DNA from: an uncultured SAR86 cluster bacterium
GTDB lineage: Bacteria > Pseudomonadota > Gammaproteobacteria > Magnimaribacterales > AG-339-G14
Direction: 5' to 3'
Length of the DNA stretch: 64,000 bases
NCBI GenBank assembly: GCA_902563105.1
Contig: CACEVU010000002.1
Coordinates: 10,592 to 74,591, forward strand
This document shows, in pieces, positions 3,134-47,675 of this stretch. Positions within the stretch are counted from its first letter, which is position 1; every line of letters begins with the position of its first letter. A model generated the notes under the pieces. That model was given only the letters and a program-made list of their open reading frames with translations, searched no databases and was not told the DNA's origin. The position numbers were made by a program, and so were the translations under genes.

Positions 3134-4690
3134 TTAATTTTTAAAGAAATTTATTCTCAATCCTAAAACAAACATTAAACCGAAGTAAATAATTGACCCT
3201 ATACCAATATTCAGAAATAGATAAATTAATTGCATTTTCAAGTTTGTATCTGCCCAATTAGGATAAATTGATTGAAATGAAATTAAGGCCACTAATAAGC
3301 ATAAAGAACTAAAAAGAATTTTTATCAGAAATAAAATAGATTTATTTTCTAAAATTAAAATAGATCGTCTAATAAGGAAGATCAATAAGACAAAAAAACT
3401 TATTATTGCAGCAATTACACTTCCCATTGCAAGCCCAACATGGCCAAGTCCAAGTTGAAATGCAAAAAACCAATTCAAAATAACGTTAATTATTAAAGAT
3501 GCCAAAGCCACATACATAGGGGTTTTTGGATCCTGTTTTGCGAAAAACCCTACGTTAAGAATTTTTATTGCCATAAATGCAACAAGACCAAAACAGAATG
3601 CTTTGAGACTATAACTAGTTTTTATAGCGTCCAAAGGTATGAATTCTCCCCTTAAAAAAAGAATATTTATAATCTCGAAGCTTAAAAAGTAGAGCCCAAC
3701 GGATGATGGGATGCCAACAAGAAAAACAAATTTTAATGCCCAATTGAAATTTTTGTTAAATTCAGTAGAGTTTTTTTCTGCAGTCGCGTTTGATAAATTT
3801 GGTAAAATTACCGTTGCCGCGGCAATCGCAAAAATTCCTAAGGGCAATTGAATTAACCGATCTGAAAGATAGAGCCAAGTTGGACTCCCTGTTTCTAAAA
3901 GTGAAGCAAAGATAGTGTCGACTAAAATATTTATTTGAATGATTCCTCCGCTTAATATCCCAGGAACTAACAAGATAAAAACTTTTTTTAATCCGGGATG
4001 ATTAAAATCAATTTTAAGTTTTGGTATAAGTTTCAATTTAACTATCGGAATTAAACTCATGAAAATTTGAATGATTCCGGCGAAGAAAACTCCCCAAGCG
4101 ATGGCCAATACAGGAAGGTCAAAATAATCAGTTAGAAATAATGCTCCAAAAATGATGCTTAAATTAAATGCTATAGGTGTTGCTGCGGGAATAGAAAACT
4201 GGTTGAAAGTATTCAATACGGAGCTAAAAAAAGCCACAAGTGATACAAAAAATAAGTAAGGAAATGTAATTCTTAAAATATCAATTGCTAAATATTTTTT
4301 TTCAACATCAAAATAAAAACCTGGAGCAAATACAAAAACTACAAGCGGAGCGAAAATCATAAAGATAATACAAATAGACAAAACTATTGAAGATATTGCG
4401 GTAAATGAAAGATTTAAAAGCTTTTTTAGTTCTTCACTTGATTGATTCGTTTTGTAGTCTGTAAAGATTGGAATAAAGGCTTGACTAAAAGCACCCTCAG
4501 CAAACAACCTTCTAAATAAATTTGGGATTTTCAACATTACAACAAAAACGTCATGTGCAATTCCAGCGCCTAAGATATAAGTTGTAGCAATATCTCGAAA
4601 AACTCCAAAAATTCTTGAGACAAACGTCCAAAAAGAAACTAGAAAAGTTTTACCTGAAATTTTAGTCTTATGACTTGGTGAAGAATCCAA
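3134..4690 (-). CDS. murJ: Lipid II flippase MurJ (MviN)
   Basis: SRIFGVFRD, IPNLFRRLFAEGAFSQAF, DRLIQLPLG; multi-TM; TTG start. Confidence 0.95.
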   Translation of the reverse strand: MDSSPSHKTKISGKTFLVSFWTFVSRIFGVFRDIATTYILGAGIAHDVFVVMLKIPNLFRRLFAEGAFSQAFIPIFTDYKTNQSSEELKKLLNLSFTAISSIVLSICIIFMIFAPLVVFVFAPGFYFDVEKKYLAIDILRITFPYLFFVSLVAFFSSVLNTFNQFSIPAATPIAFNLSIIFGALFLTDYFDLPVLAIAWGVFFAGIIQIFMSLIPIVKLKLIPKLKIDFNHPGLKKVFILLVPGILSGGIIQINILVDTIFASLLETGSPTWLYLSDRLIQLPLGIFAIAAATVILPNLSNATAEKNSTEFNKNFNWALKFVFLVGIPSSVGLYFLSFEIINILFLRGEFIPLDAIKTSYSLKAFCFGLVAFMAIKILNVGFFAKQDPKTPMYVALASLIINVILNWFFAFQLGLGHVGLAMGSVIAAIISFFVLLIFLIRRSILILENKSILFLIKILFSSLCLLVALISFQSIYPNWADTNLKMQLIYLFLNIGIGSIIYFGLMFVLGLRINFFKN

Positions 4691-37681: not shown

Positions 37682-38146
37682 CTAATAAAGTGAAATTTCT
37701 ACTCTTCTGTTTTCTGACCAAGCTTTTTCATTAGATGCTCTTTTAAGTGGTTTTTCTTCTCCAAAACTTACTACTCTAATTTTTTTTCCTGAAATACCTT
37801 TAACAATCAAATAGTCTCTTACTTCAAGAGCTCGTCTTTCTCCTAAAGCAAGATTATATTCTCGTGTTCCTCTTTCATCGCAATGACCTTCTAAACGAAC
37901 AATTTTTGCTTCTTCAATGAAAGGTAAATATTCATCTATAAGTCCTTTATCTTTTGCATCAAGTATAGCCTTATCAAAATCAAAATAGACTTTGTCTTCG
38001 AGGTTGGTAACTATCTTTTCGCCTTGCAAATATTCTTCTCCCGCTACAGAAGCATAAGACATTTGATCTACTGAATCTGATACATTCGATGCACATGAAT
38101 ATAGTTGACATACCATAGCTAAAATAAAAATTCCTATTGGTTCCAT
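37682..38146 (-). CDS. pal: Peptidoglycan-associated lipoprotein Pal
   Basis: VYFDFD, EGHCDERGTREYNLALGERRA, VSFGEEKP, NRRVE; GAGGAG SD before ATG 38146. Confidence 0.95.
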   Translation of the reverse strand: MEPIGIFILAMVCQLYSCASNVSDSVDQMSYASVAGEEYLQGEKIVTNLEDKVYFDFDKAILDAKDKGLIDEYLPFIEEAKIVRLEGHCDERGTREYNLALGERRALEVRDYLIVKGISGKKIRVVSFGEEKPLKRASNEKAWSENRRVEISLY

Positions 38147-38233
38147 AAATAATCTCCTCATTTAATAACGCCTCCACATAGGTGGATGATTATAATACTT
38201 TTTATTAGACAAGAAATTTTTAATTAAGTTTTT

Positions 38234-39517
38234 CTAATTTGCTAAGGGTGACCAAGCTGGTTCTCTTACAGAACCATTTTTTACTGGCAGTGAAAATCTA
38301 GATTTACCATCAAGAGTAATTCCACCAAGATAACCATTAGCGCCATCTTTTGTTGCATAAATAATAATATTTCCGTTAGGAGAGATCGTAGGTGATTCGT
38401 CTAAGGAAGTAGACGTCAATGTCTCTATAAACCTACTGGAAAGTTTTTTTGTAGCTATTTGAAAGTTTCCATTATTCCCATGAACAAAAAAGATTGATCT
38501 TCCATCTGGGAAATACTTTCCCCTGGCATTATAATTTCCATCCTTAGTGAGTCTTTTTTTTCTTTTTGTTTGAGTATTTATTTCATATAGTTGAGGTCCA
38601 CCAGATCTATCTGATGTAAAAATTATTTTTTTTGAATCTGGAGACCATGATGGCTCTGTATCTATTGCGTAATGATCTGTTAATCTAATGAGTCTTTTGC
38701 TATTGATAGAGTATGAGAAAATATCTGGATTACCAGAAAAGGAAACTACCAAAGCTAATTTTTTTCCATCAGGAGACCATACAGGAGCACTATTTGTCAT
38801 TCCTAGAGCTTGAATTGCTTCTCTTTTTCCAGAAATCAGGTCTTGAATAAAAATTTCCGCAAATCCATTTTCAAAAGATACGTAAGCAATTTTTTTTCTA
38901 TCTGGAGACCAATCCGGTGACATTATTGGTGATTTTGAAGTAAACAATACCTTTTCATTTTGACCATCGATATCTGAGATGCACATTTGATAGGTATTTG
39001 AATCAGAATTAATGACATATGCCAATTTAGTATCGAATATACCTTTTAGGCCGGTAATTTTTTCATAAACCCGATTACTTATTATTTTTGAAATTCTATC
39101 AATATCTTCTTCATTGCCGTTTATCTCTCCTTCCAAAATTTTTATTCTTCTATTTACATTAAATAAAGAGTAGGAAATATTTAGGTTCCCAAGTGCATTC
39201 AAAGAATTAATTTTTCCAATTAATGAAAAATCAACTCCTTGAACTTTCCAATCTCTATAGAAAAAATCTTCTTCCTTTGCTGGATAAGACAACATTTCTG
39301 ACTTGTCGAGATTTTCGAATTCAGCAAACAACAACATATTTTTTTCTATGAGATTAGAAATTTGAATTCCATAATCTTCATCTATATCGTCTTCTACGCC
39401 AAAAGGTACGAATGCAATTTTTGAAAGATTATCGCTGCCTTTAAGGATTTCTATTTCCAAGATAGAAAAGATATTGCTTGATACTAGAAGAAAAACTATC
39501 GCTATAGTTTTTTTCAC
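38234..39517 (-). CDS. tolB: Tol-Pal periplasmic protein TolB
   Basis: WSPD propeller repeats, IDTEPSWSPD, FTSDRSG.PQLY, EPAWSP. Confidence 0.95.
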   Translation of the reverse strand: MKKTIAIVFLLVSSNIFSILEIEILKGSDNLSKIAFVPFGVEDDIDEDYGIQISNLIEKNMLLFAEFENLDKSEMLSYPAKEEDFFYRDWKVQGVDFSLIGKINSLNALGNLNISYSLFNVNRRIKILEGEINGNEEDIDRISKIISNRVYEKITGLKGIFDTKLAYVINSDSNTYQMCISDIDGQNEKVLFTSKSPIMSPDWSPDRKKIAYVSFENGFAEIFIQDLISGKREAIQALGMTNSAPVWSPDGKKLALVVSFSGNPDIFSYSINSKRLIRLTDHYAIDTEPSWSPDSKKIIFTSDRSGGPQLYEINTQTKRKKRLTKDGNYNARGKYFPDGRSIFFVHGNNGNFQIATKKLSSRFIETLTSTSLDESPTISPNGNIIIYATKDGANGYLGGITLDGKSRFSLPVKNGSVREPAWSPLAN

Positions 39518-40134
39518 TCAATATCTCCTGAAGATTTAAATACCAATTTAAAATTTCTAAAATTTGACTCAAATAAATTTCTATCCAAGTTTGAAACTTC
39601 TTCAAAAAAATTAATTTTTTCCATTGTTATGAGAATTGAATCATTGAAAGCTTTATTCGAACTAAGCTCTATAAGTTCAAATTTAAAAACTTCGCCTGAA
39701 GGAGCTAAGTTTATTAGAACTTTAGCTGTGAGTATTTGACTCAAGGAATTAGGTTTTATCCAAATTGAGGAAATTTTATCTTGAATGGAAGCAGAAACCC
39801 TAACAATACTCTCTCTTTCTTTTGAAAGTTTTATTTTACTAATTTCTTTTTTTATATCTTTTTTATCTATAGAGAATTTCTGATTTTTAAGTTTAGTTCC
39901 TGAATCATCAATTTTTTTATTTACATTAGCTTTATCAAAATTTTCTTTTTTGCTAGATGGAAAACTTGAAGAATTTTTTGATGATCTTTTAATTTGATCT
40001 AATTCATAAAAATTTATTTTGATAGTTTCTTCATCGCTTATTTCAAGTTTAGGTATTGAATAAACAGAAAATATTAAGGTTAGAAATAAAATAATTAAAA
40101 AAACAGTATTTAAACTGACAAATACTTTATTCAT
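39514..40134 (-). CDS. tolA: Short TolA / TonB-C-domain protein
   Basis: N-terminal TM, Lys-rich linker, C-terminal W..P...LAPSGEV...SS.N..F domain; between tolR and tolB. Confidence 0.75.
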   Translation of the reverse strand: MNKVFVSLNTVFLIILFLTLIFSVYSIPKLEISDEETIKINFYELDQIKRSSKNSSSFPSSKKENFDKANVNKKIDDSGTKLKNQKFSIDKKDIKKEISKIKLSKERESIVRVSASIQDKISSIWIKPNSLSQILTAKVLINLAPSGEVFKFELIELSSNKAFNDSILITMEKINFFEEVSNLDRNLFESNFRNFKLVFKSSGDIE

Positions 40135-40558
40135 TCTTAGAAGGTTCAGTTATTAAGTTTATGGAATCTGATTTATAACGTTTAATAAGAGACATTATTT
40201 GTACAACGTTGTCATACTTAGTTTCTTTATCAGCTCTTACAAAAATTTCAAGGTTAGAATTATTTTTTACTATTTTCTCAAACTGCTCTGAAAATTCTTT
40301 AAAAGTTTTAAATATCTTATCTTTTTCTCCTAAATCGAGTGAATAAAAACCTTTTTTGTTTATGGAAATAGTTAAGTTTTCACTTTTAGATTTATTCAGG
40401 GCTTGAGATTCAGATTTAGGAAGATCTAAATCTATGCCTTGGATCATAAAAGGAGTTGCTACCATAAAAATCACAAGCAGGACTAATGAAACGTCTACGT
40501 AAGGAATAACATTTATTTCTGTTAAGAGCTTTCTATTTTTTAGTCTTTTCTTGGTCAT
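40127..40558 (-). CDS. tolR: TolR
   Basis: EINVIPYVDVSLVLLVIFMVATP. Confidence 0.93.
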   Translation of the reverse strand: MTKKRLKNRKLLTEINVIPYVDVSLVLLVIFMVATPFMIQGIDLDLPKSESQALNKSKSENLTISINKKGFYSLDLGEKDKIFKTFKEFSEQFEKIVKNNSNLEIFVRADKETKYDNVVQIMSLIKRYKSDSINLITEPSKNE

Positions 40559-41204
40559 TGAGTTCTTCGTAAGTTATGAGAAGCTCAGAAGAAAAATTTT
40601 CGTAACTCCTAATAATCGCGTCAATTGACTTTACACTCCAGTTATAAGAAATAAGGGCTGGAATAGCCGCAAAAAGTCCTAATGCAGTAGCTATTAAAGC
40701 TTCCGCGATGCCTGGAGCTACGGCATTTATTGAAACCTGAGTAACTTTGGCTAATCCACTAAAAGCGTTCATCACGCCCCATACTGTTCCAAACAAACCA
40801 ATAAAAGGACTTACAGATGCTACTGTGGATAAAAAAGAAAGGCCATTTTCTAGGCTTTCTTCTTGTCGACTTATAATTATTTCGGTTGCTTTATTAATTC
40901 GCTTTTCAGACTTTTCTAAACTACTATTTTTAAGGAACTCTTCATATGAAATTATGAATATTTGAGAAAGTCCGGAAATATCTTGTTTTCTCTTCAAATC
41001 ATTAAATATATTATCGATATTTTTTGAATTCCAAAATTCATTTTCAAAAATAAATATATCTTTTTTCGCACGACTTAAAGTCAACCATTTATCAAAAATA
41101 AACCACCATGATATTCCTGCAAGAATAAACAAAATTACCATTACCAATTGAACTAGAAAACTTGCCCCTAATATCAAGTCTAAAAAACTTAGTTCAGCCT
41201 GCAT
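40533..41204 (-). CDS. tolQ: TolQ
   Basis: SPFIGLFGTVWGVM, APGIAEALIATALGLFAAIPA. Confidence 0.96.
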   Translation of the reverse strand: MQAELSFLDLILGASFLVQLVMVILFILAGISWWFIFDKWLTLSRAKKDIFIFENEFWNSKNIDNIFNDLKRKQDISGLSQIFIISYEEFLKNSSLEKSEKRINKATEIIISRQEESLENGLSFLSTVASVSPFIGLFGTVWGVMNAFSGLAKVTQVSINAVAPGIAEALIATALGLFAAIPALISYNWSVKSIDAIIRSYENFSSELLITYEELNDQEKTKK

Positions 41205-41601
41205 TTTGTTTTACCAGCATTTTATTTCTTAATTTTTCTGGAAGAGCGATAGGTTTTTTACTTTTTAAATCAACACACCCGCACAACACACTAGCATCAC
41301 ACATTACCTCAGAGTTTGAAATAACTTTTTGATGAAAACTAAAGCTAGCGTTTTTAACTTCTTTTAAGGAAGATTCTATTTGAACTATTTGATCTAACAA
41401 AACAGGCTTTTTGTAATGAACATTTAATTTGTTTACTATAAAAACAATTCCTTTTTTTAGTAAATCATTTTGCACATAACCACATTCTCTGAGAAATTCT
41501 GTTCTTCCTCTCTCAAAGTACTTAAGATAATTTGCATAAAAGACGACACCTTGAGCATCAGTATCTTCATAATAAATTCTTACTTCTATCGAATCTGACA
41601 T
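41194..41601 (-). CDS. ybgC: Tol-pal-associated acyl-CoA thioesterase
   Basis: RIYYEDTDAQGVVFYANYLKYFERGRTE. Confidence 0.95.
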   Translation of the reverse strand: MSDSIEVRIYYEDTDAQGVVFYANYLKYFERGRTEFLRECGYVQNDLLKKGIVFIVNKLNVHYKKPVLLDQIVQIESSLKEVKNASFSFHQKVISNSEVMCDASVLCGCVDLKSKKPIALPEKLRNKMLVKQNAG

Positions 41602-42011
41602 TAGAGATGAGTTTCAATATCTTCTTTATAAAGAGATTTCAGTAATACAATAAAGCTTTCTAAAGAAAAATCACATGTATTATTAAAATCTAATGGTAAA
41701 TTTTTGTTTATGGTGTGAATGGGAATTCTTACTTTAATAGGCCTATGATTGAACTTATAAATTAATGCAGGATAACTGTCTTCAGGAGTAGCTTTAATTA
41801 CTTGATCCCACCAACTTTCTAGGGGTTCTGCGCCTTGTCCATACCTTTTACATTCTAAAAACCATTTCCCCAAAATTAAGTCAGGAAGATGCTTTTCTCT
41901 TGTTTGTTCTAGTATTCTTTTTAAAGGTTTTTTTAGTCCCAAAGACTCATTGATAATATTAGCGATTTCTCTTTCAAAAGATGCTCCTTTGTTTCTAGAA
42001 TTGGTCATCAA
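41601..42011 (-). CDS. PD-(D/E)XK nuclease, Hjc/phage-type Holliday junction resolvase-like
   Basis: NSRNKGASFERE...PD...LECKRY...WWDQ...PALIYK; no RuvC (RNase H fold) motifs; overlaps both neighbours. Confidence 0.75.
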   Translation of the reverse strand: MMTNSRNKGASFEREIANIINESLGLKKPLKRILEQTREKHLPDLILGKWFLECKRYGQGAEPLESWWDQVIKATPEDSYPALIYKFNHRPIKVRIPIHTINKNLPLDFNNTCDFSLESFIVLLKSLYKEDIETHL

Positions 42012-42742
42012 GTAAAGCTTCCTAAAGAAAATTCTGCATTTGAGTGAACGTTTTGTACATCATCAAGATCTTCCAAACTTTCCAAAAGTTTTATTACTTT
42101 TTCAGAAGCTTCATCGTCAAGTTCTACACTATTTGCAGCTTTCATAATGAGTTCATACTCAATTATATTAATGTCTTTTTCTTCTAGAATATTTTTTAAG
42201 TTATGAAATTCTTCAACTTCCGCAGAAATAATAAGATTGCTTTCATCGCCTTTCTCGATTTCTTCTGCGCCATTTGAAACAGAAATGTCAAAAATCTTTT
42301 CTTCATCTGTATTTTGTACAACGATTTGTCCAACTTTAGTGAAAAGGTACGCCACCGAACCATCCGTACCAAGACTTCCACCATACTTTGAAAAAGCATG
42401 TCTTACTTCAGCAACAGTTCTATTTTTGTTGTCCGTTAAAGTTTCAACAATTATTGCAACTCCATTAGGCCCATAACCCTCGTAAATAGTTTCCTCTAAA
42501 TTATCTGTTTCTTGATCTCCCGAGCCCCTAGCAATTGCTCTTTCAATGGTATCTTTAGGCATATTGGCTCCAAGAGCTTTATCTAAAGCTAATCTGAGTC
42601 TTGGATTGTCTGTGGGCTCTGGACCTCCAAGTTTTGATGCTACTGTAAGTTCTCTAATGAGTTTAGAAAAAATTTTTTGTCTTTTCTCATCTTGACGACC
42701 TTTGCGATGTTTTATATTTGCCCACTTGGAATGACCTGCCAT
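42008..42742 (-). CDS. yebC: YebC/PmpR family protein
   Basis: MAGHSKWANIKHRK, YEGYGP.G, TDNKNRT, LEDLDDVQNV. Confidence 0.97.
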   Translation of the reverse strand: MAGHSKWANIKHRKGRQDEKRQKIFSKLIRELTVASKLGGPEPTDNPRLRLALDKALGANMPKDTIERAIARGSGDQETDNLEETIYEGYGPNGVAIIVETLTDNKNRTVAEVRHAFSKYGGSLGTDGSVAYLFTKVGQIVVQNTDEEKIFDISVSNGAEEIEKGDESNLIISAEVEEFHNLKNILEEKDINIIEYELIMKAANSVELDDEASEKVIKLLESLEDLDDVQNVHSNAEFSLGSFT

Positions 42743-44505
42743 TAAGAGTCCTCTTCAATAACTTTTATAGAAAGCATGTCCAATTGATCTTGATCAATTA
42801 AACTTGGCGCATCTGAAAGCAAACACGTAGCCGACTGAGTTTTAGGAAAAGCAATCACATCTCTTATAGATTCTTGTTTACAAAGAAGCATGATCAGTCT
42901 GTCTAATCCAAAGGCTATTCCTCCATGAGGTGGACAACCATAGGTCAGAGCTTCTAAAAAGAAACCAAATTTTTCTTGAGCTTCTTTTTTATTTATTCCT
43001 AGGATTGAAAATATTTCTAACTGCTCTTGAAGATTGTTTATTCTTAGTGAACCGCCACCTATTTCACTTCCATTTAGAATTAAATCATATGCCCTAGCAA
43101 TAGCATTAATAGGATCTTTTTTAAGTGAATCAATACCTCCATTTGTCGCTGTAAAAGGATGATGCGATGGTGATAAATTTCCTTTGATATCTTCCTCAAA
43201 TAAAGGAAAATCAGTTATCCATCCAAATTTGTATTCTTCTTGGTCTATTAGTTGTAAGTCGTGCCCTAGTTTTTCTCTTAATGCACTCATTGAATCATTT
43301 ACTATATTTCTATGATCTGCCCCAAAAAAAACAGTATCTCCAGCGGAAAAGTCTAGTGTTTTCGAAAGATTGGAGATTTCTTCTGTTGAAAGGAACTTAA
43401 GGATAGGAGACTGAAGACCTTTATCTAAATCATTGGAATCATTTACTTTAATGTATGCCAAACCTTTAGCACCAAAATTTCCTACGAATTTAGTGTACTC
43501 ATCGATTTTATTTCTGCTTATTTCTTGATTAATTTTTAGAGCAACAATTCTAGACTTCTCATTTTTAGCTGGATCAGCAAAAACTTTAAAGGTTGAGTTT
43601 TTAAAAATATCTTTTACATCTATCAATTTTAAGGGATTTCTCAAATCTGGCTTATCAGAGCCATAATCCATTATTGCATCTTGGTATTTTATCCTTTGAA
43701 AATCTTTAAATTCTAGTTTTAAAATTTTTTGAAATATTGCTTTTATTAGGCTTTCCGAGATTTTTAAAATCTGTTCTTCATCGATGAAAGAAAGTTCTAT
43801 ATCTAATTGAGTAAATTCAGGTTGCCTATCTTTTCTTGTATCTTCATCACGAAAACATCTAACGATTTGAAAATATTTTTCAAACCCTCCTATCATAAGC
43901 ATTTGCTTAAATAATTGAGGTGACTGAGTCAACGCATAAAACTTTTGATTATAGAGCCTGCTAGGAATAAGAAAATCTCTTGCTCCTTCAGGAGTTGCTC
44001 TAGCCATCATTGGAGTTTCTATTTCTATAAAGTCTTCATCGACAAGCTTATTTCTTAAAATATGATTCACCTCAGATCTAATTTTTAAATTTTCCTGCAT
44101 TTCAGGTCTTCTTAAGTCCAAATATCGGTATTTAAGCCTTACTTCTTCGCCAGCATTTGCATGCTCATCGAGCTGAAAAGGTAAAGGCTTGCTTATAGAA
44201 AGAATATTTACCTTCTTAGAAATGAGTTCAAGCTCTCCTGAAGGTAAAGATTTATTTATAGTCCCTTCTGGTCTTTTTCTAAGCTCGCCAATAATTTCTA
44301 AAACGTAAGACATTCTTATTGACTCTGATTTTTTAAAAAGTTCTTGATCTTCGGGTTCAACAACAACCTGAATCAGTCCTGAAGAATCCCTAATATCAAG
44401 AAAAATTACTCCGCCATGATCTCTAACTTTTTCAACCCAACCAGAAATAGTAAACGTGGAGTTAATGTCTTTAGAGGAAATCTTATGTATTAGAGTGCGT
44501 TTCAT
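42742..44505 (-). CDS. aspS: Aspartyl-tRNA synthetase (probably non-discriminating)
   Basis: RDHGGVIF, TPEGARDF, QSPQLFKQ, CFRDED, PPHGGIAFGLDR. Confidence 0.97.
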   Translation of the reverse strand: MKRTLIHKISSKDINSTFTISGWVEKVRDHGGVIFLDIRDSSGLIQVVVEPEDQELFKKSESIRMSYVLEIIGELRKRPEGTINKSLPSGELELISKKVNILSISKPLPFQLDEHANAGEEVRLKYRYLDLRRPEMQENLKIRSEVNHILRNKLVDEDFIEIETPMMARATPEGARDFLIPSRLYNQKFYALTQSPQLFKQMLMIGGFEKYFQIVRCFRDEDTRKDRQPEFTQLDIELSFIDEEQILKISESLIKAIFQKILKLEFKDFQRIKYQDAIMDYGSDKPDLRNPLKLIDVKDIFKNSTFKVFADPAKNEKSRIVALKINQEISRNKIDEYTKFVGNFGAKGLAYIKVNDSNDLDKGLQSPILKFLSTEEISNLSKTLDFSAGDTVFFGADHRNIVNDSMSALREKLGHDLQLIDQEEYKFGWITDFPLFEEDIKGNLSPSHHPFTATNGGIDSLKKDPINAIARAYDLILNGSEIGGGSLRINNLQEQLEIFSILGINKKEAQEKFGFFLEALTYGCPPHGGIAFGLDRLIMLLCKQESIRDVIAFPKTQSATCLLSDAPSLIDQDQLDMLSIKVIEEDS

Positions 44506-44859: not shown

Positions 44860-46134
44860 ATGAAAGCTTCCTCATTTCACTATAAAACACTCAAAGAAGC
44901 CCCTAAAGATGCTGAACTTGTAAGTCACAAACTTATGGTGAGGGCTAATATGATAAAACCATTAGCTTCTGGTATTTATTCCTGGCTTCCTTTAGGTTTA
45001 AAAATTTTAAATAAAGTTGAAGAAATCATTCGAAAAAATATGAATGAATATGGATGTTTAGAAGTTCTTATGCCTATGGTACAACCAAAATCTTTGTGGG
45101 ATGAGACTGGAAGATCAGAAATGATGGGGCAAGAGCTTTTAGGCTTCTCAGATAGAAATGATAGAAAATTTTATCTTGGCCCAACGCATGAAGAAGTAAT
45201 TACAGATATATGTAGACAAGAACTACAAAGCCATAAAGATTTACCAAAAACCTTTTATCAGATTCAAACAAAATTCAGAGACGAAATAAGACCAAGATTT
45301 GGAATTATGAGAGGAAGGGAATTCTTGATGAAAGATGCCTATTCTTTTGACATTGATGAAAACGGCATGAATAAAAGTTATGCGGCTATGAAAGAGTGCT
45401 ATAAAAAAATTTTTGATGAAATAGGATTTGATTACAAAATTGTTAAAGCAGATTCAGGAGCCATTGGAGGAAATATGTCAGAAGAATTCCATGTTTTAGC
45501 AAATTCTGGTGAAGACACCCTTGTATTTAATGAGAAGGATTTTTCTTCCAATTTAGAATTATTAGAAGAAGATCTTAAAAAGCAAATAGAAGACAAAATT
45601 AATAATAATGACTTTTCAGACATAGAATCTAAACATGGAAAACTTTCAATTATGAAGGGTATTGAGGTTGGACATATTTTTGAATTGGGAAATAAATACA
45701 GTGAATCTATGGGGTTAAGTGTTCAATACAATAATGTACAAAAAATTTTAGAGATGGGCTGTTATGGTATTGGAGTGTCAAGAATTGTTGCTGCTACTAT
45801 TGAGCAAAATCATGACGATCATGGGATAATTTTTCCAAGAAGTATTTCACCATTTGATTGTTCATTGATATCAATAAATGAAAATAAATCAAATAAAGTA
45901 AAAGAAAAATCCTTAGAAATTTACAATCTGCTTATAACAAACAATATTGAGGTCTTTTACGACGATAGAGACGTATCTTTGGGTGTGAAATTTTCTGATG
46001 CTAATTTAATGGGAAATCCATATCAAATTGTAATAAGTGAGGGTAACATTCAAGAAAACTTAATTGAAGTAATTGATAGAAGAGACCAATTAAAATCCAA
46101 AATTAAAGAGACTGAATTACTGGGTCTCTTTTAA
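44860..46134 (+). CDS. proS: Prolyl-tRNA synthetase, short form without the INS editing domain
   Basis: [46 protein letters not shown]; 424 aa. Confidence 0.96.
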
Positions 46135-47142
46135 AGAATCAGTAATTTGTTTTTCTATCTTTTTAGCTACAGAAGGATTATCTTTTAGAAACTGACTAGC
46201 ATTGATTTTTCCTTGGCCTATTTTCTCTCCTTCGTAGGCGTACCAGGCTCCAGCTTTTTCAACAATCTTTTTCTCAACGCCTATATCAATTAATTCACCA
46301 GCTCGATTAATTCCTTTGTTATAAAGAATTTGAAATTCTGCTTGTCTGAATGGAGGTGATACTTTATTTTTTACTACCTTCACTCTAGTTTCATTTCCAG
46401 CGACCTCATCACCATCCTTCACAGTACCTATTCTTCTTATATCTAATCTAACTGAAGAATAAAATTTCAATGCGTTTCCGCCGGATGTTGTTTCTGGACT
46501 TCCAAACATGACTCCGATTTTCATTCGAATTTGATTTATAAAGATGACAAGCGTATTTGATTTTTTAATATTTCCTGTAATTTTTCTAAGAGCTTGTGAC
46601 ATTAATCTCGCCTGAAGCCCTACGTGGTGATCGCCCATTTCACCCTCAATTTCAGCTCGAGGGACTAAAGCTGCAACAGAATCAATCACTAAGACGTCTA
46701 TTCCTCCAGATTTAACCATAATATCTGCAACTTCCAAGGCCTGTTCCCCAGTATCTGGTTGAGATAGAAGCAGATCATCTATTTTTACCCCTATTTTTTC
46801 GGCATATACAGGATCTAATGCGTGTTCAGCATCTATAAATGCAGCCGTTCCGCCTTGTTTCTGGCACTCAGCTATAACTTGCAAAGTTAGAGTTGTTTTT
46901 CCTGAAGATTCGGGACCAAAAATCTCCACTACTCTTCCTTTGGGTAAGCCCATAATACCGAGTGCCAAATCTAATCCTAATGAACCTGTTGAAATGCTGG
47001 GAATGCTCTGAACCTCTCTTTCGCCCATTCTCATTATGGTTCCAGGACCAAATTGTGTCTCTATCTGAGAAATTGCATTTTCTAAAGATTTTCCTTTTTC
47101 AGGCGACTTTAGATCATCTTTTTTTGTTTTTCTTGTTGGCAT
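46117..47142 (-). CDS. recA: Recombinase RecA
   Basis: [39 protein letters not shown]. Confidence 0.99.
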
Positions 47143-47149
47143 AATTAAA

Positions 47150-47165
47150 CTGTATATTTATACAG
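47150..47165. promoter_or_regulatory. LexA (SOS) box upstream of recA
   Basis: CTGTATATTTATACAG matches the CTGT-N8-ACAG gammaproteobacterial consensus, 7 nt from the recA ATG. Confidence 0.88.
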
Positions 47166-47183
47166 TATTAAACAACATAATAA

Positions 47184-47675
47184 TTATTTTTGCAAACAAA
47201 TTAATATTTCTTTTAAAGCAAAAGTAACGCTTTGTTGTCTAACTTGGTTTCGATCTCCTTCAAAATATTTTGTATGGCAATTTATATTATTAATCGAGCC
47301 AATTCCAAAACACACAGTTCCGACAGGTTTTTCTTCAGTCCCTCCAGAGGGACCCGCAATTCCACTTATTGAAATTGCAAAATCAGAGCCTGATTTATTT
47401 AAAGCGCCTTCTGCCATTTCTTTGACTACAGTCTCACTTACAGCGCCCTCCTTTAATAAAGAGTCTTTTGAAACATCAAGAACTTTTAATTTTGCTTTAT
47501 TTGAGTATGTTATAAATCCAAAACCATACCACTTCGAACTTCCGGGCACTGCTGTAAATTCTTTTCCGACCCAGCCTCCTGTACATGATTCAGCAGTTGA
47601 AATACTTTTTTTAGATTCAGAAAGTAGACGGCCTATCTTTATAGCTAAATCTTGTACATCTCCATTGGAATTCAT
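47184..47675 (-). CDS. pncC: NMN deamidase PncC (CinA C-terminal domain)
   Basis: TAESCTGG, YSNKAK, GAVSE, SGIAGPSGG..KPVGTV. Confidence 0.93.
   Translation of the reverse strand: MNSNGDVQDLAIKIGRLLSESKKSISTAESCTGGWVGKEFTAVPGSSKWYGFGFITYSNKAKLKVLDVSKDSLLKEGAVSETVVKEMAEGALNKSGSDFAISISGIAGPSGGTEEKPVGTVCFGIGSINNINCHTKYFEGDRNQVRQQSVTFALKEILICLQK

Follow-up and report, generated by a model that had tools for sequence, protein, structure and literature searches.

In the order Magnimaribacterales (SAR86), the slot that holds ruvC-ruvA-ruvB in outgroups is occupied by one small nuclease gene, and RuvA, RuvB, RuvC and RusA were not found; this swap is fixed in the order. The gene studied here lies in a window of 64,000 nucleotides (the whole stretch of DNA analysed) from an uncultured SAR86 cluster bacterium. 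We consider it likely that its product is a domesticated phage Hjc-like Holliday-junction resolvase, a homodimer, that replaced RuvC in the ancestor of the order. Junction cleavage, a partnership with RecG and the direction of transfer, from phage to cell, are the parts of this reading that we infer.

The nuclease gene (Hjc-like PD-(D/E)XK, Pfam PF24608/PDDEXK_15) is located at 41601..42011 on the minus strand and encodes 136 amino acids when read from a TTG at 42011. The motifs named in the original prediction (SRNKG, FERE, PD within LPDL, ECKR, WWDQ and PALIYK) are all present in the translation. Orthologues start with MTNSR (alignment A2), so translation probably begins with the ATG at 42008-42006, which would give a protein of 135 amino acids. 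The yebC stop and this ATG share the sequence TGATG and overlap by 1 nt (4 nt with the TTG start), and TAATG (41603-41599) combines the nuclease stop with the ybgC start, again with a 1-nt overlap, so that the gene does overlap both of its neighbours, as had been claimed. The ORF is no chance frame, as evidenced by 609 homologues in the protein collection searched. For the nuclease, comparison with same-genus orthologues yielded an estimate in 7 of 10 pairs, with a median dN of 0.086, similar to that of yebC (0.068), and values for ybgC, tolQ and tolR were higher (0.124-0.139). Because dS exceeded 1 and was saturated, dN alone is informative and the dN/dS of ~0.03 is rough. Judging by these comparisons and by the tree described below, strong constraint has acted on the gene ever since the ancestor of the order. 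Contigs from RNA libraries (four runs, three studies) cover the gene and span both junctions with 1-4 mismatches; they report presence in RNA libraries only, not strand, level or transcript ends, and bins left uncovered are uninformative. These contigs hint weakly at transcription, DNA carry-over being a possible source.

The neighbours predicted from the sequence were confirmed by Pfam. Upstream, with zero gap, lies yebC (42008..42742, minus strand; TACO1/YebC family, PF01709 181 bits and PF20772 114.5 bits), whose start is overlapped by 1 nt by aspS (aspartyl-tRNA synthetase, 42742..44505, minus strand), the gene that heads this tightly packed row. The downstream side is abutted, also with zero gap, by a ybgC-type 4HBT thioesterase gene (41194..41601, minus strand; 4HBT 63 bits). 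It is followed, in the same orientation, by the tol-pal block (37682..41204), which consists of tolQ (40533-41204), tolR (40127-40558), a tolA-like gene (39514-40134), tolB (38234-39517) and pal (37682-38161), all on the minus strand, the genes from tolQ to tolB being mutually overlapping. The gene of the strand-exchange protein RecA, which makes junctions, is found 4 kb upstream of the nuclease (46117..47142, minus strand) and is preceded by cinA (47184-47675).

The gene order named in the original prediction, yebC-ruvCAB-ybgC-tol-pal, was borne out in the class. In eight of the ten best RuvC loci ruvC is directly preceded by yebC, and seven of the eight longer outgroup loci have yebC, a gap of 2.3-2.6 kb and then ybgC-tolQ-tolR-(tolA)-tolB-pal. 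The yebC-ybgC gap of outgroup locus L059 encodes RuvC, RuvA and RuvB (Pfam). Outgroups thus have yebC directly upstream of ruvC and ybgC after ruvB, and it is this very slot that the nuclease gene fills in 14 of 14 loci inspected, from four families of the order.

In the source genome (1.2 Mb, 93.9% complete, 8 contigs) ruvA, ruvB, ruvC and rusA were not found, and the RusA model PF05866 had no match anywhere in it. The order was sampled across four families and 21 genera, with genomes of 0.7-1.8 Mb from marine sources and a GC content of 32-40% per contig. RuvC was detected in none of 41 relatives and in none of 151 genomes of the order, as against 387 of the 401 class genomes searched (383 of 397 without G346, G180, G079 and G334, which are flagged as unpublished and count only in the class tallies of the nuclease and of RuvC). 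None of the 41 relatives had RuvB or RuvA above the cut-off, the best scores being 29 bits vs. 299 and 21.9 bits vs. 85, respectively. Six one-contig genomes (G017, G029, G030, G031, G033 and G034) had no RuvC match and nothing above cut-off for RuvA and RuvB, and tblastn with outgroup RuvC, RuvA and RuvB reached best E-values of only 4.7, 0.036 and 2.8e-4. Since ruvABC was found neither in the genome nor in its relatives, the one genomic observation that the original prediction had named as decisive against it, intact ruvABC elsewhere, was not made. According to the available part of PMC3403352, RuvAB is missing from less than 2% of bacteria, mostly parasites, and among 117 species the RecA-bearing genomes without RuvAB reported in the accessible text of PMC1193525 are those of Wigglesworthia and Aquifex only. 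A literature search returned no paper joining SAR86 with ruvC or with the Holliday junction, and the main text of PMC11582366 contains neither "ruv" nor "Holliday"; Table S1 of that paper may already tabulate part of the "loss" half of the finding.

The nuclease matches PF24608 (PDDEXK_15, phage putative PDDEXK endonuclease) over residues 4-100 with 37.1 bits (cut-off 27, E 3.9e-9), and the same family was found in all of the best 120 of the 609 homologues. It also matches PHROG 244 (E 3e-13), so the phage-type affiliation that had been proposed holds. Such sequences are labelled "RusA-like" in PHROG and "Holliday junction resolvase" by JGI; both annotations are unverified and are not used as evidence. 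In Pfam searches at E up to 1, PF24608 was the only match; the Hjc model was unmatched, as were PF05866 (RusA), PF02075 (RuvC) and PF03838 (RecU). NCBIfam has no family for the nuclease, and phmmer against PDB chains returned no match at E up to 10. The family profile reached 1gef (Hjc) with E 0.13, a value that is not significant alone. A literature search yielded no paper on PDDEXK_15/PF24608, and hence no assayed member. In the ESM Atlas, the stored homologue P0059 retrieved only PF24608 clusters.

A structural model of the nuclease (pLDDT 90.3, pTM 0.85; helices 4-24 and 65-74, strands 45-47, 50-57 and 80-87) was compared with solved structures. VIA-align against 48,161 chains gave just three chains with Z of at least 8, all of them archaeal junction resolvases: Hje 1ob8 (Z 9.8, rmsd 3.1 over 104 residues), Hjc 1gef (Z 9.2, rmsd 3.4 over 106 residues) and Hjc 2wcw (Z 9.0, rmsd 3.1 over 105 residues). 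The best unrelated nuclease had Z 7.0, and restriction enzymes and NucC scored below Hjc/Hje; as models that lack a true match often reach a best Z of 7-8, Z 9-10 is good, not overwhelming. In Foldseek the top 14 matches listed were Hjc, Hje or ST1444, with E-values from 1e-3 to 1.6e-2 and TM-scores of 0.45-0.57, no PDB match being below 0.001 (best 1.0e-03). Every fold match found by either program was a PD-(D/E)XK protein, a fold with many functions. The nuclease itself carries the E...D...ExK residues of this superfamily on an alpha-beta-beta-beta-alpha-beta core.

In the profile alignment to 1gef (E 0.13), residues E13, R14, R32, D44, E53, K55 and K86 pair with E9, R10, R25, D33, E46, K48 and K81 of Pyrococcus furiosus Hjc, which are listed as essential in the available part of a review (PMC10956419). 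Conservation in an 86-row alignment was 86 rows for E13, 76 for R14, 85 for R32, 84 for D44, 85 for E53, 85 for K55 and 84 for K86 (K or R). We regard these seven as putative catalytic and essential residues; with the nearest solved folds (Foldseek among the tools), their alignment agrees with the Hjc-type layout noticed at the outset.

A symmetric homodimer was predicted with a score of 0.68, compared to 0.08 for the best of three controls; contacts agreed by at least 94% between runs, with a partner pLDDT of at least 83. Among proteins with solved structures, 20 of 30 one-chain pairs and 1 of 23 single chains attained the mark, counts that hold only roughly because the author's own alignment was used. 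The predicted interface is formed by residues 98-127 (C-terminal strand and helix), outside the Pfam-matched core. The pass may reflect the model's memory of solved Hjc dimers.

Of the 41 relatives, 40 carry the nuclease, and so do 143 of the 151 order genomes. These carriers comprise 55 of the 57 high-quality genomes and represent 21 of 21 genera, and 142 of the 143 have a single copy. Outside the order it is rare: a class search retrieved eight matching genomes of 400 scored, four of them from outside the order, and a phylum search (401 genomes) found eight carriers other than the order's own. None of 13 non-order loci that were checked had yebC, ybgC or tolQ nearby. A divergent 111-aa copy in G226 and G385 was considered as a parallel case and rejected, since it is below the Pfam cut-off and both genomes have RuvC.

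PF24608 is mainly a phage family, and its phage members sit in replication and recombination modules, next to genes for a primase/helicase, SSB, an annealing protein and an exonuclease-like nuclease. At one prophage-like locus a homologue follows a YbcO-domain gene; in DLP12, in parallel, rusA comes after ybcO. In the phylogenetic tree 14 sequences of the order formed a single clade (SH-aLRT 100) within a phage/metagenome radiation. Alignment A1 comprised 77 of 150 listed representatives of ~120-160 aa, covering most of the query, and eight close ones; the tree left out the latter (P0005, P0017, P0027, P0034, P0059, P0123, P0126 and P0127) and contained the 14 genome-derived orthologues in their place.

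As for the rest of the recombination machinery, the source genome has RecA, RecR, XerD/XerC and RecG, the last being a gene whose search the original prediction had called for, and RecB, RadA and RecQ were not found in it. Since RecQ was also not found in 40 of the 41 relatives, a RecQ-based route of junction dissolution is unlikely. Retention of XerCD suggests that crossovers still arise. RuvX/YqgF, which has been proposed as a resolvase, is present in the source genome. One family includes five genera, sampled with 45 genomes, that keep the nuclease and in which the search for RecG was negative; five of these 45 genomes were tested for RadA, likewise with a negative result.

The retention of the gene in the subclade without detected RecG fits a more general role than junction resolution, namely that of a broad structure-specific "debranching" enzyme acting on forks, flaps, D-loops and junctions and kept for replication-fork rescue. 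Such a role would also suit a family found mainly in phages, whose resolvases tend to be less selective than those of cells, as the available text of PMC3864405 has it. We nevertheless think it unlikely, since Hjc/Hje, to which the nearest folds and the seven matched residues belong, are junction-specific, the gene has been strongly constrained from the ancestor of the order onwards, and a constitutive unselective nuclease in a housekeeping operon would be a hazard. Quite improbable, in our opinion, is the view that the nuclease is unrelated to the loss of RuvABC and serves a different purpose, for instance Mrr-like restriction or the processing of RNA or DNA ends; under this view RecG-driven reversal or RuvX would clear the junctions, or nothing would. 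Co-location with the old slot does not by itself prove the same function, RuvX is present, and the Atlas assigns the automatic name [quoted passage not shown]. Yet the 136-aa protein has no DNA-recognition or partner domain, it is encoded in single copy in a housekeeping operon at the exact ruvCAB slot rather than in a defence island, restriction enzymes and NucC match its fold less well than Hjc/Hje do, and XerCD is kept. Finally, an assembly artefact, with ruvABC hidden in the unassembled 6% of a 93.9% complete, 8-contig genome, is effectively refuted by the RuvC count of the order, the one-contig genomes, the tblastn results and the gap-free junctions of the nuclease with yebC and ybgC.

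Under the resolvase reading, the ancestor of the order would have acquired the nuclease gene from a phage; the gene would have taken the place of ruvC-ruvA-ruvB, translationally coupled to yebC and ybgC, and the RuvAB motor would have been lost with no like-for-like substitute. RecFOR would load RecA, and RecA would make junctions, which RecG, where present, would move, branch migration being most likely left to it. The nuclease, which would be a homodimeric Mg2+-dependent PD-(D/E)XK endonuclease of the archaeal Hjc/Hje type, would cut across the junction with a pair of nicks, and the resulting chromosome dimers would be resolved by XerCD. There are precedents in E. coli, where RusA together with RecG suppresses ruv mutations and a ruvC strain regains repair when it is given Hjc (PMC10956419, available part). 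Displacement of the whole RuvABC resolvasome, as originally proposed, thus stands for the locus and only partly for the functions, because a 15-kDa nuclease can substitute for cutting by RuvC, not for the RuvAB motor. A wider claim, plausible though we stop just short of favouring it, is that the order runs recombination on a minimal post-synaptic kit, in which RuvABC has given way to a 15-kDa phage-derived Hjc-like dimer and the genera in which RecG was not found cut junctions without a dedicated branch-migration motor. Junction cutting without such a motor is undescribed for free-living bacteria in the literature surveyed.

The closest known enzymes are archaeal Hjc/Hje (1gef, 2wcw, 1hh1 and 1ob8), the nearest solved folds. 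Like the nuclease, they are small PD-(D/E)XK proteins (~120-140 aa) with the same KG..ER / D / ExK layout; the seven essential residues of Pfu Hjc are matched, and a homodimer is predicted for the nuclease. Unlike them, the nuclease has its predicted interface in a C-terminal strand and helix, has a bacterial host and belongs to a phage family, its sequence similarity to Hjc/Hje is below significance with the Hjc Pfam model unmatched, and it has conserved motifs of its own, R32-x-L-x-Q and WW-x-Q.

The logic of the system is that of RusA with RecG, as in the rus suppressors of E. coli and in Aquifex aeolicus, which is without RuvAB and has RecG; the prophage-like copy of the nuclease in a rusA-like slot after ybcO and the "RusA-like" label of the PHROG are further points of likeness. 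The fold differs, as RusA is presumably not a PD-(D/E)XK enzyme, and here the swap is fixed across an abundant free-living order, in the ruv locus and not in a cryptic prophage. RusA acts without RuvAB, needs RecG in E. coli and substitutes for RuvABC (PMC10956419 and PMC1193525, parts available). RecU of Firmicutes and Mollicutes is the textbook case in which a non-orthologous PD-(D/E)XK resolvase has displaced RuvC (PMC3403352 and PMC1193525, in the accessible text). However, RecU lineages keep RuvAB and have recU far from ruvAB (PMC3403352, same portion), while here RuvAB is gone and the new gene occupies the old slot. RecU structures also matched less well (1y1o, Z 6.0; 1rzn, Foldseek E 0.097). 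The Hjc-like resolvase of Thermus phage Tth15-6 (7bgs) is a phage-encoded enzyme of Hjc type (PMC10956419, available part), in contrast to the nuclease, which would be a domesticated cellular gene; its match is distant (Z 5.7, rmsd 3.0 over 84 residues) and was missed by the family profile.

RuvAB is near-universal. The order described here, marine, free-living and abundant worldwide, seems to manage without RuvA, RuvB and RuvC. A cultured SAR86 isolate exists, and the completeness of SAR86 genomes is underestimated by standard gammaproteobacterial marker sets (both from the available part of PMC11582366). If the nuclease is a resolvase, it would add, after RecU and RusA, a third independent case of bacteria replacing RuvC, here with an archaeal-type fold and in the old locus, and PF24608, a widespread phage family of unassigned function, would gain a testable role. 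The finding would then also bear on how genome streamlining trims DNA repair, and would partly explain these completeness underestimates.

The putative nuclease is encoded by a 136-aa ORF (41601-42011, minus strand) within a tightly packed minus-strand gene row composed of aspS (42742-44505), yebC (42008-42742), the ORF itself, a 4HBT thioesterase gene of the ybgC kind (41194-41601), and then tolQ, tolR, a tolA-like gene, tolB and pal. The motifs quoted in the original prediction are present in its translation. Since orthologues in the alignment begin with MTNSR, translation probably starts at the ATG at 42008. The predicted overlaps with both neighbours were seen in the junction sequences, TGATG (yebC stop and nuclease ATG) and TAATG (nuclease stop and ybgC start), which, as read from the DNA, is a classic translational-coupling layout. 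RNA-library contigs from three studies match the nuclease gene with 1-4 mismatches and span the yebC-nuclease (41834-42055 and 41928-42078) and nuclease-ybgC (41515-41684) junctions; being contigs, with no silent stretch as control and with DNA carry-over possible, they give a weak hint of co-transcription with yebC and ybgC.

The ORF is a real gene, because it matches Pfam PF24608 (PDDEXK_15, “phage putative PDDEXK endonuclease”; 37.1 bits, cut-off 27) and PHROG 244 (E 3e-13), has 609 homologues in a large protein collection (PF24608 was found in all of the best 120 of the 609), and has a low median dN within genus (0.086), similar to that of yebC (0.068) and below those of ybgC, tolQ and tolR. 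Upstream of the row (44860-46134, plus strand) lies a gene for a class-II aminoacyl-tRNA synthetase that has only 424 aa and consists of the core and an HGTP anticodon domain; its N-terminus looks ProRS-like, and if the enzyme is a ProRS, the insertion (editing) domain known from the E. coli type is missing. The nuclease gene and the cinA-recA pair (46117-47675, minus strand) are only 4 kb apart, and RecA-like frames also occur 6-11 kb from the nuclease gene in four relatives (G026, G029, G032 and G035).

The order yebC-ruvC-ruvA-ruvB-ybgC-tol had been given as conserved in Pseudomonas-like gammaproteobacteria, and the outgroups bear this out. In 8/10 outgroup loci ruvC lies directly downstream of yebC; in seven of the eight longer loci yebC is followed by a 2.3-2.6 kb gap and then by ybgC-tolQ...pal, and in locus L059 this gap encodes RuvC, RuvA and RuvB. 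Thus, the outgroup loci show the former content of the slot now occupied by the nuclease gene. As sampled, the order comprises four families and 21 genera with genomes of 0.7-1.8 Mb (32-40% GC per contig in the genome under study), figures that fit those published for SAR86 (Magnimaribacterales; four families, 18-22 genera, genomes of 1.05-1.66 Mb and 31-40% GC; PMC11582366), so that the order is likely SAR86. The nuclease was found in 40/41 relatives and in 143 of the 151 genomes of the order sample (55/57 high-quality genomes, 21/21 genera). The row aspS-yebC-nuclease-(ybgC)-tolQRAB-pal was present in all 14 mapped loci, covering all four families; family f4 lacks ybgC in the row and keeps the nuclease, tolQ following it directly in two loci of genus g7 (L034 and L035).

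Searches for ruvA, ruvB, ruvC and rusA were negative. In the genome under study (1.20 Mb, 8 contigs, 93.9% complete), no match to the RuvC, RuvA_N or RusA profiles was detected. RuvB_N gave four weak AAA+ matches, each scoring 18.7-24.6 bits and lying in a frame of 421-799 aa; one of them reaches 31.2 bits (cut-off 27) only when summed with neighbours in the same frame. The best tblastn matches of outgroup RuvC, RuvA and RuvB had E values of only 4.7, 0.036 and 2.8e-4, respectively. The relatives (41 genomes from 4 families and 12 genera, including several one-contig assemblies) agree with these searches: RuvC was found in none, and none gave RuvB (best 29 bits versus 299) or RuvA (best 21.9 bits versus 85) above cut-off. 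RuvC was likewise found in 0/151 genomes of the even order sample (completeness of 80% or more; 4 families and 21 genera). Across the class, RuvC was found in 387/401 genomes (341/349 of high quality); of the 14 without it, 4 belong to the order, and six of the remaining ten have a completeness below 85%.

Outside the order, the nuclease family is rare. PF24608-type nucleases were detected in 8 of the 400 class genomes scored (4 of them outside the order) and in 9 of the 401 genomes searched across the phylum (8 besides the genome under study), and in none of the 13 loci checked outside the order does the family adjoin yebC. A tree of 98 sequences was built with phage homologues; in it, 14 sequences of the order form one clade (SH-aLRT 100), within which families f2, f3 and f4 are each monophyletic, and which is nested among metagenome and phage sequences. 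The simplest history is one capture in the ancestor of the order followed by vertical descent. Relatives with 28-41% identity were found in 29 phage records, the closest being marine (Phage C72C1 and Roseobacter phages CRP-701, -811, -821, -822 and -406). The phage homologues sit in replication/recombination modules, where the neighbouring gene codes for a primase/helicase, SSB, a Sak-like annealing protein or an exonuclease-like PD-(D/E)XK protein; the names “RusA-like” and “putative resolvase” that these records carry are annotation labels rather than test results. A 3.6-Mb gammaproteobacterium has a prophage-like locus in which the homologue follows a YbcO-domain gene, just as rusA comes after ybcO in E. 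coli DLP12.

Several individual cases were observed. The closest phage homologue (Phage C72C1, OQ984150.1, about 4001-4417, plus strand; 33% identity) is an unannotated 144-aa frame, its site being annotated instead with a short opposite-strand “hypothetical protein”. One genome (G441, family f3, genus g11) has two nuclease copies (C1:343371-343775 and C4:52016-52411), the sole such case among the order genomes sampled. A divergent PDDEXK_15-like gene of 111 codons' product length (111 aa; 25.7 bits, just below the cut-off) lies among housekeeping genes in G226 (L041, 1483-1818) and G385 (L042), 1.1-Mb genomes of family f190, a small-genome gammaproteobacterial lineage retaining RuvC. Homologues in PAWD01000035.1 (61% identity) and JAYOXR010000047.1 (43%) come from bins labelled Thaumarchaeota or Nitrosopumilus and are probably mis-binned bacterial or phage contigs.

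The nuclease had been assigned a KG..E/PD/ExK layout of the Hjc type, and both residues and fold point the same way. In an 86-row alignment G9 and E13 are invariant, and R6, K8, R32, L34, Q36, D44, E53, K55, W67, W68, Q70 and P81 show at least 90% conservation across the rows; the pattern is that of a PD-(D/E)XK active site. The family profile matches P. furiosus Hjc (1gef) weakly (E 0.13; Hjc chains make up 4/9 weak matches), its alignment pairing E13, R14, R32, D44, E53, K55 and K86 with Hjc E9, R10, R25, D33, E46, K48 and K81, exactly the seven listed as essential in a review (PMC10956419). Each of these positions is conserved in 76-86 rows of the 86-row alignment, K86 as K or R. The confident AlphaFold model (pLDDT 90.3, pTM 0.85) was aligned, without Foldseek, to 48,161 representative PDB chains, and only three, all archaeal junction resolvases, reached Z of at least 8: Hje 1ob8 (Z 9.8, rmsd 3.1 over 104 residues), Hjc 1gef (9.2, 3.4 over 106) and Hjc 2wcw (9.0, 3.1 over 105). 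S. solfataricus Hjc followed at 7.2, generic nucleases from 7.0 down and RecU at 6.0. With Foldseek, each of the top 14 among the matches listed was Hjc, Hje or ST1444, although the scores were modest (E 1e-3 to 1.6e-2, TM 0.45-0.57), and among 32 predicted viral structures matched at E of at most 0.001 the few named ones were labelled Holliday junction resolvase or Hjc. The homodimer prediction scored 0.68 versus 0.08 for the best of three controls (contacts agreeing by at least 94% between runs, pLDDT at least 83); the mark was reached by 20/30 proteins solved as one-chain pairs and 1/23 solved as single chains, counts that apply only approximately here because the prediction used our own alignment. 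The score may also stem from resemblance to Hjc dimers of solved structure.

The recombination kit of the genome is very small. RecA (46117-47142 in the window), RecR, RecG, RuvX/YqgF, XerD and an XerC-like gene are present; therefore, junctions can form and chromosome dimers are still provided for. RecB and RadA/Sms were not found in this genome, nor RecQ in 40/41 relatives, and there is no sign of a dissolution route based on RecQ. RecG alone is recognisable as a branch-migration motor. Aquifex aeolicus has RecG and lacks RuvAB (PMC1193525). A pairing of nuclease and RecG would follow the same genetic logic as in E. coli, where RusA, aided by RecG, suppresses ruv mutants and archaeal Hjc restores repair in ruvC cells (PMC10956419). 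RecG, called at E 1e-130 or lower, a threshold separating it from Mfd, was found in 102/151 genomes of the order sample. Five f3 genera (g6, g9, g11, g12 and g332; e.g., G026, G029, G032, G035 and G038) gave no RecG in any of their 45 genomes, against 25/27 genomes with RecG in the remaining f3 genera. The nuclease is present in 42 of the 45 genomes of the five genera; in the five of them tested for RadA (93-96% complete), RadA was not found and RecA-like frames were present. If the absence of RecG is real, junctions in this subclade would be resolved without any known motor. In the two-contig genome G008, both recG and an Mfd-like gene are broken into a pair of adjacent frames (C2:93825-95745 and 823976-825228), which may be assembly frameshift errors rather than pseudogenes.

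The observation behind the original prediction is confirmed, and the prediction itself, that RuvABC was displaced at the same operon slot by a domesticated phage nuclease, is supported as far as computation goes. We consider it probable that the protein is a domesticated phage Hjc-like resolvase: a phage nuclease would have been captured into the ruv slot and domesticated in the ancestor of the order, RecA would make junctions, RecG would move them where present, and the Hjc-like dimer would cut them. That the enzyme is instead a nuclease with broader debranching activity appears unlikely, and an unrelated role more doubtful still; an assembly artefact can practically be dismissed. The main text of PMC11582366 makes no mention of ruv or Holliday junctions. 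The loss of RuvABC may already be partly on record; no report of its replacement was found in the literature searched. For the putative Hjc-like resolvase, the principle is known, as non-orthologous resolvase replacement has been seen before with RecU and RusA. What would be new is the fold family of the replacing resolvase, its capture into the ruv locus itself, and the fact that a free-living and abundant lineage has lost RuvAB.
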